A stretch of 21,234 nucleotides of DNA from a virus (IMGVR_UViG_2537562190_000017); one strand, 5' to 3'. Numbered from the stretch's first letter, positions 1,463 to 6,112 are shown. Numbers and translations: made by a program. The notes: generated by a model from the letters alone, not told the origin.

Positions 1463-1492
1463 AAAAAAGACCACCGGCACACACCGATGGTC
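1463..1492 (-). terminator. Intrinsic terminator between the small upstream ORFs and the holin
   Basis: On the minus strand GACCATCGG-tgtgtg-CCGGTGGTC followed by TTTTTTATTG. Confidence 0.55.
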
Positions 1493-1504
1493 CCTGACGC
1501 ATGC

Positions 1505-1750
1505 TTACATCATCATGTCGCTGTCCGGTGTGGGGTCACCGCTATCTGAAGCACTCCCCTCACCCGCGATGCCTTCCGGCTCCGGAGCTGCCGGTGCGCC
1601 CAGCAGTTCATCCAGAATGGCATCCACTTCTGCATCAAGACGCGCTTCCAGGTTATGGCGAAGTTTCTGTTTCAGTGCGCTCCGGACTTCTTCAGAGCGC
1701 AGGACTTCCTTCACTGCTTCAGCAGTGACCAGGGATGTAATTTCTGACAT
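1505..1750 (-). CDS. Hypothetical acidic protein (81 aa)
   Basis: ATG at 1750; [60 protein letters not shown]...; coding-like helical N-half and acidic tail. The track ORF 1505..1924 carries a non-coding-looking extension. Confidence 0.45.
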
Positions 1751-1790
1751 GGGATTTTCTCGTCGAAAGATGTGATTAAGAAAGTTGCCG

Positions 1791-1970
1791 CTAAATGAGC
1801 GGCTCTTCGGGTTTGCTTCCGGCTGACTGACTGGCGCTGATTTTCTCAGCGGCCCTTTTGTCAATCTGTCTGCGCCAGACGTCACGCATGGCCCGGTATC
1901 CACCCGAAAGGAGATACAGCACACAGACCACCGTACAGAAGTACAGCATTAACTGGTTCAGAAATGTCAT
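1791..1970 (-). CDS. Small membrane protein (59 aa, one predicted TM helix)
   Basis: Manually translated: MTFLNQLMLYFCTVVCVLYLLSGGYRAMRDVWRRQIDKRAAEKISASQSAGSKPEEPLI; GGAAAG SD 5 nt upstream of ATG at 1970. Below the 60-aa track cutoff. Confidence 0.4.
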   Translation of the reverse strand: MTFLNQLMLYFCTVVCVLYLLSGGYRAMRDVWRRQIDKRAAEKISASQSAGSKPEEPLI

Positions 1971-2068
1971 AATTTCTTTCCGTTATTGTTGACAATAAGA
2001 ACTGTTTTCATTAAAAAACCAGAGTACGAAAGTATCGTTCCTTTATTTTTTCTCCATAGGTATCACCA

Positions 2069-2104
2069 CCGCCAGCGTCCATTCCTGTCGCTGGCGGTTT
2101 TTTT
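2069..2104 (+). terminator. Plus-strand intrinsic terminator abutting the 3' end of the esterase gene
   Basis: CCGCCAGCG-loop-CGCTGGCGG followed by TTTTTTT (2098-2104). On the minus strand the tail is not U-rich. Confidence 0.5.
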
Positions 2105-2105
2105 A

Positions 2106-4281: not shown

Positions 4282-4306
4282 AAAAAAAGCCCCTCCGGAG
4301 AGGGGC
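4282..4306 (-). terminator. Minus-strand intrinsic terminator downstream of the methyltransferase
   Basis: On the minus strand GCCCCTC-tccg-GAGGGGC followed by TTTTTTT; back-to-back with the plus-strand terminator at 4247-4275. Confidence 0.55.
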
Positions 4307-4555
4307 TTCGCTACGTGTCTGTTAACCATATGCATGGTGCCGGGTGCCTCCCGGTGAGTTCAGTATCAGCACCTGAACCCGCACAGAAAGGATAGAGTAG
4401 AAACACCTGCGCTGATATGCCCCTCCGCTCAGGGGGATTCACCATGCCAGTTTCTTTTAACAAACTCCCCGCAAACCAGACAACTGTCAACCGTCTGAAT
4501 TGTGAGACATTTAAAATTTTCGGGGCGTACCTGATACCCGGTTAATTCTGCAATA

Positions 4556-5614
4556 TCATCCGTTCTGACTGACTAAATCCTGTACTTCCCTGACCGTCTG
4601 CTCAAAACGTTCAGTCTCCAGCTCAACGCCAGTTGCACGACGCCCCAGCGCCATCGCGGCTTTGACTGTCGAACCCGACCCCATGAAGAAATCTGCAACC
4701 AGGTCACCCGGACGACTGCTCGCACTGATTATCTGCTGCAGCATTTCTGCCGGTTTTTCGCACGGATGTTTCCCGGGATAGTACTGCACCGGTTTATGCG
4801 TCCACACATCCGTGTACGGCACCTGCGCCGTCACGCCAAAATACCGCCGCAGATGCTTATATTCACTCTGTAGTTCCGCATACTGCCGGTTCAGTGAAGT
4901 ATACGTCTCCAGCAGCTGGTGGTGGGGCTTCTCCAGTTCACCCCGCTGATGCTTCTCTTCTGCCACCCGGGCAAACAGCGCCTGTAATTTCAGATAATCG
5001 CTTTCGTTCGGTAGCTGCCACTGACTGGCACTGAACCAGTGCGACACCATGTTTTTCTTTCCTGTGGCATCCACTATCTGTTTTGCCGTTATCCCCAGGG
5101 CAGCACGCGCATCACGAAAGTAAGAAATCAGCGGAGCCATCACATGCTGTTTCAGTGCCCTGCCCTTCGCCTCATACCCGGCATCTTTCGGACGATACGG
5201 CCCCTGATAATGTTCCGCGAACAGAATGCGCTCGGTGGCCGGAAAATACGCCCGCAGGCTTTCCTTGTTACACCCGTTCCAGCGTCCGGACGGCTTTGCC
5301 CAGATGATATGGTTCAGTACGTTAAACCGCTCACGCATCATTATTTCGATGTCAGATGCCAGGCGATGGCCACAGAACAGGTAAAGACTTCCGGCAGGTT
5401 TCAGCACCCGCCAGAACTGCGCAAGACACTGCTCCAGCCACTTCAGGTAATCTTCATCACCCGCCCACTGGTTATCCCAGCCCTCGGGTTTCACTTTGAA
5501 GTACGGCGGGTCCGTGACTATCAGGTCAACAGAATTTTCGGGTAACGACCGCATAAATTCCAGGCAGTCGGCGTTGATTAACTCATAACTGGATATTCTT
5601 ACAGTATTAAGCAT
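4556..5614 (-). CDS. Orphan DNA methyltransferase, beta-class amino-MTase (N6-adenine or N4-cytosine)
   Basis: 352 aa; motif IV DPPY near the N-terminus (LIVTDPPYF) and an AdoMet-binding FxGxG-type motif near the C-terminus (DFFMGSGST). The order IV then I indicates the beta class. No restriction endonuclease gene is adjacent. Confidence 0.85.
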   Translation of the reverse strand: MLNTVRISSYELINADCLEFMRSLPENSVDLIVTDPPYFKVKPEGWDNQWAGDEDYLKWLEQCLAQFWRVLKPAGSLYLFCGHRLASDIEIMMRERFNVLNHIIWAKPSGRWNGCNKESLRAYFPATERILFAEHYQGPYRPKDAGYEAKGRALKQHVMAPLISYFRDARAALGITAKQIVDATGKKNMVSHWFSASQWQLPNESDYLKLQALFARVAEEKHQRGELEKPHHQLLETYTSLNRQYAELQSEYKHLRRYFGVTAQVPYTDVWTHKPVQYYPGKHPCEKPAEMLQQIISASSRPGDLVADFFMGSGSTVKAAMALGRRATGVELETERFEQTVREVQDLVSQNG

Positions 5615-5754
5615 GGATCATTAAGCCTGTCTCTGATAGGCTCATTCTGCTTTTGCGCAAAGCAGTGGGCCTGAGGTTTGCTTGTGAACCCAACGCATGA
5701 GCAGATGGCTGGTGGGTGCCCCTTACAACCACCAGCCGCCCATTTACCACAAAT

Positions 5755-5778
5755 AAAAAAGCCTTCAGGACTGAAGGC
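5755..5778 (-). terminator. Minus-strand intrinsic terminator overlapping the stop codon of the small ORF
   Basis: On the minus strand GCCTTCAG-tc-CTGAAGGC followed by TTTTTTATTTG. Confidence 0.55.
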
Positions 5779-5962
5779 GTCTGTAACAACCGAACTGATA
5801 GTCTGCCAGACCCGCCATAACCAGCTGGGTCAGTATTAGCTGGCAGCGTTCGCGTGAAAGGTACGTATTCTGTGCAATCTCCCCGACAGTCGCCGGTTCG
5901 GTGGCACTTAATTCATTAAAAACCACTCTGGCGGTTTCGGTCATATCCTGCTGTTTCAGCAT
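5765..5962 (-). CDS. Small hypothetical protein (65 aa) with helix-turn-helix-like segment
   Basis: ATG at 5962 with AAGGGA-type SD; MLKQQDMTETARVVFNELSATEPATVGEIAQNTYLSRERCQLILTQLVMAGLADYQFGCYRRLQS. First ORF after the tR'-like terminator. The track ORF 5765..6085 extension would run into the terminator. Confidence 0.4.
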   Translation of the reverse strand: MLKQQDMTETARVVFNELSATEPATVGEIAQNTYLSRERCQLILTQLVMAGLADYQFGCYRRLQS

Positions 5963-6085
5963 GTCTTTTTCCCTTTTCCGGTTAACGTGACACACCAATA
6001 ACTCTTGTCGAAAAAGCCAGCAAGCTGAAAGACAGGTATTCACCGCCACCAGCGCGTTTAACGTACCGCACCGCTTTTCGGGCAT

Positions 6086-6112
6086 AAAAAAACCGCCTGG
6101 CGGCGGGTTTTT
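6086..6112 (-). terminator. tR'-like intrinsic terminator about 65 bp downstream of the Q-like gene (hairpin is bidirectional, stronger on the minus strand)
   Basis: A7 - CCGCC-tggc-GGCGG - T5 on the plus strand; read on the minus strand the hairpin is followed by seven T. Confidence 0.6.

Follow-up and report, generated by a model that had tools for sequence, protein, structure and literature searches.

The window analysed here is the whole 21,234-nucleotide (nt) stretch of the virus IMGVR_UViG_2537562190_000017, and the element in question is the interval between the antiterminator gene Q and the holin gene (positions 1463–6112), in which intrinsic terminators are interspersed among the genes of a late operon. 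Lambdoid prophages of E. coli O157:H7 and O103:H2 that have no stx match bases 1–9000 of the window with 97% identity over 83% query coverage; the nearest phage relatives are Stx2-converting phages, and the O157:H7 and O103:H2 prophages are closer still. The window is the late region of an stx-less, Stx-phage-like lambdoid E. coli prophage. All late genes in bases 1–9000 are situated on the minus strand and are transcribed in the order RusA, Q, an open reading frame (ORF) of 65 amino acids (aa), an adenine DNA methyltransferase, the sialate O-acetylesterase nanS-p, DUF1378, DUF826, holin, and lysozyme (Table 1). Annotated relatives have the same gene order, with the lysis protein and the terminase coming next. 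True Stx phages have three tRNAs and stxAB between the methyltransferase and the esterase/STnc100-like RNA; a tRNA search of the window found no tRNA genes, and the tRNA block of the Stx phages is therefore missing. The interval is probably the leader of a Q-dependent late operon, in which the terminators are the late-promoter terminator tR′, the ends of small RNAs (sRNAs), and the boundary terminators of small modules.

Six hairpins followed by T-runs, four on the minus strand (T1 to T4) and two on the plus strand, are present in the interval at the positions and on the strands where an earlier note made without database searches, the sequence-only reading, had placed them. A pattern scan of bases 1–9000 yields 32 terminator-like sites, against 9.4 ± 3.2 in shuffled sequences. 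The terminator scan of 1400–6200 proposed in that reading, performed with a stricter pattern, yields 11 matches against 3.05 ± 1.96 in shuffles; the six sites are the strongest of these and the sole intergenic ones, and four further matches within the nanS-p coding region are chance-like. Folding too weak to terminate had been named as grounds for abandoning the proposal; the free energies of the sites lie between −11.2 and −22 kcal/mol, and comparison with dinucleotide shuffles gives z-scores from −3.2 to −5.2 (T1, −15.4 and −4.1; T2, −11.2 and −3.4; T4, −20.4 and −3.95; the plus-strand site 2069–2104, −20.1 and −5.2; the plus-strand site 4247–4275, −16.9 kcal/mol).

Table 1. Genes, terminators, and RNA features of the late region, in the direction of late transcription.
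Feature	Position	Strand	Details
RusA	6861–7220	minus	
Q antiterminator, 229 aa, phage-82 type	6175–6864	minus	Pfam PF06323, E = 4.7e-84
Candidate pR′	6163–6191	minus	TTGCAA 6186–6191, 17 nt, TATGTT 6163–6168; overlaps the Q stop; read from the sequence and a relaxed scan
T1	6086–6112	minus	stem CCGCC/GGCGG 6093–6106; U7 6086–6092; A5 upstream; terminator-like in both directions
65-aa ORF ("HTH-like ORF" of the sequence-only reading; HTH, helix-turn-helix)	5765–5962	minus	RefSeq names: hypothetical protein or TrmB-family regulator
T2	5755–5778	minus	stem GCCTTCA/TGAAGGC 5761–5778; U6 5755–5760; TGA stop of the 65-aa ORF in the 3′ arm
Beta-class N6-adenine DNA methyltransferase, M.EcoGI/M.EcoGII type	4556–5614	minus	Pfam PF01555, E = 9e-45
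STnc100-family sRNA gene	4276–4476	minus	Rfam RF02076; T3 is its terminator helix
T3	4282–4306	minus	stem GCCCCTC/GAGGGGC 4289–4306; U7 4282–4288
Plus-strand terminator	4247–4275	plus	hairpin 4247–4268; T7 4269–4275
Antisense sRNA, 3′ part, EcOnc08/21/42 family	4180–4275	plus	terminator hairpin 4247–4268; T7 4269–4275; seed-like CCUUGCC 4240–4246
nanS-p type sialate O-acetylesterase, 648 aa	2106–4052	minus	Pfam DUF1737, SASA, DUF6645
Plus-strand terminator	2069–2104	plus	hairpin 2069–2097; T7 2098–2104
Esr41/PasA-like antisense sRNA candidate	2029–2106	plus	terminator 2069–2104
Candidate promoter of the Esr41-like RNA	1989–2017	plus	TTGACA (perfect) 1989–1994, 17 nt, TAAAAA 2012–2017; read from the sequence
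DUF1378 small ORF, 59 aa	1791–1970	minus	Pfam PF07125, E = 1.3e-39
DUF826 small ORF, 81 aa	1505–1750	minus	Pfam PF05696, E = 3.1e-40
T4	1463–1495	minus	stem of 9–13 bp 1469–1495; U6 1463–1468
Holin, class II (phage 21 S-type), M-N-Q-M dual start	1212–1427	minus	Pfam PF04971, E = 7e-33; RefSeq annotation of 100%-identical relatives
Lysozyme gene	674–1207	minus	Pfam PF00959; downstream of the holin

The first terminator after Q, T1, was compared across 80 loci of viral contigs coding for the 65-aa ORF, of which 79 were usable. A GC-rich hairpin with a run of six to nine T residues occupies the T1 position in all 79, and its T-run ends 115–123 nt ahead of the ATG of the 65-aa ORF. The DNA upstream of this hairpin belongs to at least eight unrelated families, corresponding to different Q genes and late promoters. 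The stems vary with the pairing kept (CCGCC/GGCGG, CCACC/GGTGG, CCCGC/GCGGG, and CCCGCC/GGCGGG); these compensatory changes were taken from per-sequence folds, and the MAFFT alignment columns misregister stems of unequal loop length. In the loci with a Q gene of the lambda family, the −10 element TAAATT and the AACGATGGG pause element are recognisable and align with the late promoter of lambda itself, and the terminator follows approximately 65 nt after the start, versus 194 nt in lambda. Simultaneously, the homology between the window and most relatives ends near 6107, at the T1 hairpin. Because position and pairing are conserved beneath at least eight different modules, the lambda hallmarks lie upstream in the lambda-type loci, and the homology breaks at the hairpin itself, T1 is identified as tR′ and, in addition, as the recombination joint at which Q/pR′ cassettes are exchanged against the downstream DNA.

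The Q protein belongs to the same family as that of phage 82, which acts with a +25 pause, and shares 67% identity with it; a sequence search of the PDB with the Q protein found no solved relative. At the nucleotide level, similarity to the phage 82 record X92588 is confined to the N-terminal two thirds of the gene and ends at approximately 6399; the record stops at the Q stop codon, and the comparison ends there, short of the pR′ of phage 82. The C-terminal third of Q (6399–6175) and the promoter region (6110–6175) differ from phage 82 and from most 82-type Q genes, and the two appear to move together as a separate specificity cassette. This variant is found in 268 E. coli genomes. Strain UTAK-6 shares 99.8% identity with the window over the 471-nt segment 5950–6420, which holds the end of Q and T1. 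A layout of TTGCAA, 17 nt, and TAT(G/A)(T/C)T overlapping the Q stop is common to the window, Sakai Sp3, and E2348/69 PP2, all with 82-like Q genes (TATACT in Sp3 and PP2). Beyond the candidate pR′, −10-like elements (TATAAA/GATATT) are located in the early transcribed region; in Sp3 and PP2, −10-like elements and then a hairpin likewise follow the promoter-like element. The late transcript would start at approximately 6156, and the leader RNA up to T1 is predicted to be approximately 65–70 nt long. Of the parts of a late antitermination unit, the locus has a Q of known family, a terminator shortly after the candidate pR′, and lysis genes downstream on the same strand. Compared with the 82-type leaders of Sp3 and PP2, the window contains a 19-nt insertion at 6111–6129 on the minus strand, which gives the predicted pR′ leader RNA a first, additional 5′ hairpin by supplying its 3′ arm.

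T3 is the end of an STnc100 sRNA, not of the methyltransferase. The covariance model of this family matches with 148.1 bits against a gathering score of 47 (E = 2.3e-33) over model positions 1–206 of 206. T3 lies 250 nt past the stop codon of the methyltransferase, which has no terminator of its own. The STnc100 locus shares 81% identity with the Sakai Sp4 locus of EcOnc05, an Hfq-bound RNA of approximately 222 nt on Northern blots. In the Stx2 phage Sp5, it has a homologue in EcOnc27, whose published probe maps within the Sp5 homologue and whose bands are approximately 235/247 nt. An alignment of six homologues contains a conserved TTT(G/A)TTAAAA, with the module starting near 4510.

Tail to tail with this sRNA, the plus strand carries the 3′ part of an RNA that is antisense to the 5′ untranslated region (UTR) of the esterase. 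It shares 94% identity over 101 nt with Sakai Sp4 at the Hfq peaks of EcOnc08/EcOnc21, an RNA of approximately 271 nt on Northern blots. Its 3′ sequence and seed also match the 182-nt sRNA E2348C_1409.E2348C_1408.IGR, obtained by RNA interaction by ligation and sequencing (RIL-seq) in enteropathogenic E. coli (EPEC) and listed by its authors as a homologue of EcOnc08/21/42. By sequence homology, the RNA belongs to the EcOnc08/21/42 group; its 5′ end may lie near 4081–4094 or deeper in nanS-p. The Rfam models of AsxR and AgvB (RF02703/RF02702) gave no match at gathering score or at E ≤ 5, and the 3′ region of the RNA differs from the AsxR/EcOnc03 sequences; by the covariance models and by the 42-nt 3′ region that AsxR and AgvB conserve (TTGCCCGAACCCACTCGGGCTTTT), the RNA belongs to neither family. 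Other assignments were also discarded. Around the plus-strand terminators, a relaxed Rfam search (E ≤ 5) aimed at AsxR, AgvB, and further sRNAs returned sub-threshold matches only, to Esr41, OmrA-B, anti-hemB, STnc370, and isrK; all but the Esr41 match appear to be due in large part to terminator similarity. The identification of one of the hairpins with HnrS (EcOnc10-12) was rejected on its Sakai coordinates, which lie after Rz, on the opposite strand, and outside 1463–6112.

Convergent sRNA genes 3′ of pR′, at a "moron site", were described in the Sakai prophages Sp3, 4, 5, 9, 10, 11, 15, and 17 (Tree et al. 2014, PMC4104026). As in the described pairs (AsxR/EcOnc27, AgvB, and EcOnc05/08/21/42), an STnc100-type RNA on the sense strand of the window meets an antisense RNA tail to tail, and the terminators of the two stand back to back a short way upstream of nanS-p. 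In Sakai Sp4, the counterparts of T3 and of the antisense pair lie at 1179741–1180101. There are two differences: the antisense partner is of the long EcOnc08/21/42 type, whereas the AsxR and AgvB anti-sRNAs are 51–60 nt long, and the pair follows the methyltransferase, whereas in Stx phages it follows stxB. Further RNAs related to those of the window are Rfam STnc100, PasD, and PasA (PMC8550237; Zhu et al. 2026 preprint). The homologues are expressed in uninduced enterohaemorrhagic E. coli (EHEC) and EPEC, with peaks from Hfq cross-linking and analysis of cDNA (Hfq-CRAC) and Northern bands for the Sakai Sp4 loci. By analogy with these homologues, the sRNA genes would be the only parts of the interval with evidence of expression in the lysogen.

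Taken as a whole, these features suggest the following mechanism. A constitutive pR′ would overlap the end of the phage-82-type Q gene, and in the lysogen its transcripts would halt at T1 after approximately 65–70 nt, yielding a short leader analogous to the lambda 6S RNA and to StxS. Polymerase leaking past T1 would meet T2 after the 65-aa ORF, then T3 at the end of STnc100, and then T4 before the holin; because T1 to T4 would stop both the pR′ transcripts and those that leak through, the methyltransferase, nanS-p, and the lysis genes would stay off until Q acts. Following the paradigm of lambda, 82, and the Stx phages, Q loading at pR′ would render the polymerase resistant to terminators and switch on the methyltransferase, nanS-p, the small ORFs, and the lysis cassette. 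T2 and T4 would close small protein-coding modules, and sRNA genes on both strands would be embedded in the leader. The claim of the sequence-only reading that lysis-gene expression depends on Q-modified polymerase is thereby supported as the most likely case: with several sense-strand intrinsic terminators between Q and the holin, the first of which corresponds to a conserved tR′, the lysis genes most likely need Q-modified RNA polymerase, as in related phages.

A constitutive pR′ that is halted at tR′ and read through with Q is the established model of lambdoid and Stx phages (PMC7547250, PMC8065619), and the arrangement at this locus is already known biology of the lambdoid prophages of EHEC and EPEC. 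As in the pR′–6S RNA–tR′ switch of lambda, a late promoter and a short terminated leader directly follow Q, with the late genes downstream on the same strand, but there are significant differences in dimensions. The leader would be approximately 65–70 nt in the window and 45–50 nt in Sakai Sp3 and E2348/69 PP2, against 194 nt in lambda; tR′ and the holin are separated in the window by approximately 4.7 kb of accessory DNA, in which three further sense terminators lie, against approximately 0.4 kb in lambda. In the case of StxS of the Stx1 and Stx2 phages (Sy et al. 2020, PMC7547250), a short constitutive pR′ RNA is likewise ended at tR′ in the lysogen, as a by-product of antitermination control in a late region of Stx-phage type. 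StxS is 258 nt long, is processed to 74 nt, and binds Hfq, whereas the leader predicted in the window is unrelated in sequence. At the positions homologous to T1 and T2 in Sakai Sp4 and Sp11, around ECs_1086 and ECs_2192, the table of Tree et al. lists no Hfq peak. With unrelated Q/pR′ cassettes swapped at tR′ among EHEC and EPEC prophages with the 65-aa ORF, each cassette would therefore give its lysogen a different leader of approximately 45–70 nt, and some of these leaders could act in trans, as StxS does. It is doubtful that the locus offers anything new; if it does, the candidates are tR′ as a fixed joint with different short leaders and a T4 helix selected for a role other than termination, both of which are apparently undescribed.

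Several points weigh against this interpretation. The candidate pR′ matches the consensus at just 8 of 12 positions, the GC stem of T1 is only 5 bp long, and the start site of pR′, the efficiencies of termination, and the read-through by Q are all inferred. For the sRNAs, the sequence offers no convincing promoters: neither the alignment of six homologues nor a relaxed scan of the region upstream of STnc100 contains a convincing −35/−10 pair, and processing could be the source of the 5′ ends seen in STnc100-type RNAs. Weak or non-consensus promoters of the protein-coding modules, which sequence scans may miss, are possible, and NanS-p enzymes are reported to benefit lysogens (PMC8065619). Furthermore, the T4 helix is kept in many relatives in which the U-tract is interrupted or missing.

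The last point leads to the question of what T4 is selected for. The hairpin follows the DUF1378–DUF826 pair and was compared in 120 loci with a common holin 5′ UTR, with the U-tract examined in 80 DUF826 loci. It falls into four sequence classes (A, A2, B, and C). Across them, a consensus helix of 12 bp is paired to 95.8%, against 34–70% in slid controls, and four of its pairs carry changes on both sides. The window has a U-tract of U6, approximately 30 of the 80 DUF826 loci have UUUAUAU, and the Sp5/933W type has U5C, and class B (approximately 35 loci) has no U-tract. In Sakai Sp5, the hairpin is of class C and lies near 1272750–1272790. The helix thus appears to be under selection, and termination may not be its sole role; because the U-tract is lost or interrupted where the helix stays, termination as the selected function of T4 is in doubt. 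T4 above all, and possibly T2, might mainly stabilise RNA 3′ ends or act as sites of processing or as translational elements in the late mRNA. In the case of T4, whose compensatory changes span four classes with U-tracts from U6 to none and which lies only 36 nt ahead of the dual-start holin gene, such an element could set holin dosage or timing; for T2, the overlap with the stop codon and the second conserved hairpin without a U-tract that comes next fit the same proposal. In the window, however, both T2 and T4 have a canonical U6 directly after a GC-rich stem, three of the four T4 classes retain at least five U residues, and the roles of terminator and stabiliser are compatible with each other. 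We regard it as unlikely that the hairpins serve mainly in this way, although the selected role of T4 may be in the processing, stability, or translation of the holin mRNA rather than in termination.

A second proposal takes up the view of the sequence-only reading that the interval is broken into self-contained morons, each of which can be expressed on its own in the lysogen. Every protein block (the 65-aa ORF, the methyltransferase, and DUF1378–DUF826) would then be a moron of the classical kind, equipped with a promoter and a terminator and transcribed in the lysogen independently of the rest. Part of its basis is sound. Terminators do come after the 65-aa ORF (T2) and after the DUF1378–DUF826 pair (T4), and relatives have acquired or lost the blocks as whole units, as is apparent from the 80 loci, the homology split after T2, and the stxAB/tRNA insertion. 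Reviews state that late-region morons may have a promoter and a terminator of their own, and NanS-p esterases are reported to aid the growth of lysogens on acetylated sialic acid (PMC8065619). The account of which gene or gene pair each terminator follows has to be corrected elsewhere: T1 follows Q and the candidate pR′ and not the "HTH-like ORF", and three of the six sites (T3 and both plus-strand terminators) belong to sRNA genes. nanS-p, the largest gene of the interval and missing from the sequence-only reading, has no sense-strand terminator, and the hairpin past its stop has a T-run on the other strand only. Simultaneously, a consensus scan of 1400–6200 found no sense-strand promoter, and a relaxed sigma-70 scan of the sense strand returned 8 matches against 11.2 ± 3.4 expected, none of which precedes the 65-aa ORF, the methyltransferase, or DUF1378. 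The GC content stays at 0.45–0.60 across bases 1–9000 without an island, so that the deviant composition typical of a moron is not seen.

The methyltransferase also bears on this proposal. It shares 94% identity with the 349-aa prophage enzyme of O104:H4 C227-11 and 92% with the M.EcoGII sequence printed in the supplement of PMC11551740. M.EcoGI and M.EcoGII, non-specific adenine methyltransferases, are reported to be unexpressed during normal growth of the lysogen, and their constitutive expression is reported to be harmful (PMC5778455). The enzyme of the window resembles these O104:H4 prophage enzymes both in protein sequence (92–94% identity) and in place, downstream of Q and a 198-nt ORF; it differs in length (352 aa against 349 aa), and its activity is predicted from the sequence. 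Because its near-identical homologues are reportedly silent in the lysogen and harmful if constitutive, the methyltransferase matches a gene that T1 and T2 hold off until Q turns it on, rather than an independently expressed moron, and it is presumably silent in the prophage of the window. The blocks resemble the morons described for lambdoid phages (Juhala et al. 2000, cited in PMC4104026 and PMC8065619) in being accessory insertions into the late operon whose presence varies between relatives, some of them with a factor-independent terminator after them. Unlike those morons, they are without demonstrable promoters of their own and without compositional contrast, one supposed moron terminator is that of an sRNA, and the methyltransferase homologues are silent in lysogens. 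The blocks are mosaic modules in evolution, and their independent expression as classical morons is improbable.

Hairpins arising as chance inverted repeats or as mere recombination scars with no transcriptional role, for which the homology breaks at T1 and near T2 and the weak terminator-like matches inside the nanS-p coding region could be cited, are scarcely credible, given site counts three to four times the shuffle expectation, the intergenic location of all six sites with 6–7 T residues directly after GC-rich stems, the compensatory changes at T1 and T4, the place of T3 within a curated RNA family, and homologous RNAs of the expected sizes on EHEC Northern blots.

In the Q-dependent leader favoured here, a potentially harmful adenine methyltransferase and the lysis genes would be held silent behind a constitutive late promoter because terminators are stacked after it, and the embedded sRNA genes would stay active in the lysogen meanwhile. 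For annotation, the terminators of the leader belong to tR′ and to prophage sRNAs (STnc100, the EcOnc08/21/42 family, and Esr41/PasA-like) and provide no evidence for independently expressed protein-coding morons. The current understanding of lambdoid late-gene control is unchanged.

Among the 80 loci, the unit formed by the 65-aa ORF and T2 is paired with many kinds of Q, and the methyltransferase is present beside it in some loci and absent in others. T2 is kept in all 80, with nearly all variation in the loop. Approximately 35 nt past its T-run, the relatives divide into a methyltransferase branch and another branch; in approximately 13 loci, the STnc100 module follows the 65-aa ORF without a methyltransferase. 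The helix-turn-helix label of the ORF product, resting on a sub-threshold match to Pfam TrmB (E = 0.0012, under the curated cut-off), is unproven. An AlphaFold single-sequence model contains four helices with a predicted local distance difference test (pLDDT) score of 78; a Foldseek search of the PDB with this model returned nothing with E < 1, and an NCBIfam search with the ORF gave no match. Directly after T2 and upstream of the methyltransferase, a conserved inverted repeat or RNA hairpin of 11–12 bp is located at 5707–5737 on the minus strand (GGCTGGTGG(T/G)TG...CACCCACCAGCC), without a U-tract. Relatives contain G:U and compensatory variants of it (GGGTG..CACTC vs GGGTG..CACCC), and its role could be that of an RNA element or of an operator on which the product of the 65-aa ORF acts. 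Just ahead of the methyltransferase ATG at 5614, another hairpin (AGCCUAUCAGAGACAGGCU, 5624–5642, minus strand) would mask the sole AGG usable as a ribosome-binding site, and may thereby limit translation of the potentially harmful enzyme.

The nanS-p gene is annotated in Stx phages as yjhS or 9-O-acetyl-N-acetylneuraminic acid deacetylase. In its 5′ UTR, a weaker terminator-like hairpin lies at 4163–4178 on the minus strand (CUGCGCAACUGCGCGG followed by CCUUUUUCG), with an identical copy in Sakai Sp5; a fifth, weak stop on the sense strand, absent from the list of the sequence-only reading, could lie here. Around the 3′ end of the gene, the plus-strand terminator at 2069–2104 closes an Esr41-like RNA, which occupies the position of PasA in E2348/69 PP2 and of EcOnc52 in Sakai Sp4. 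The Rfam Esr41 model (RF02676) matches at 2029–2106 with 28.1 bits (E = 0.025) against a gathering score of 102, so that the RNA is Esr41-like only and not a member of the family. For the identical sequence in Sakai Sp5, near 1272080–1272220, the table of Tree et al. lists no Hfq peak.

Two further elements flank the interval. Upstream of the late region, a match to the sok antitoxin RNA (Rfam RF01794, 100.8 bits against a cut-off of 59) at 10401–10568 on the minus strand points to a toxin–antitoxin locus of the hok/sok type, and hokD is annotated there in relatives. Downstream of the lysozyme gene, a strong terminator-like hairpin (AGAGGCACCGUAAUGGUGCCUUU) is situated at 544–566 on the minus strand; some of the related loci have a hairpin almost identical to it (AAAGGCACCTTAATGGTGCCTTTGTCGTTTTT) ahead of T1.

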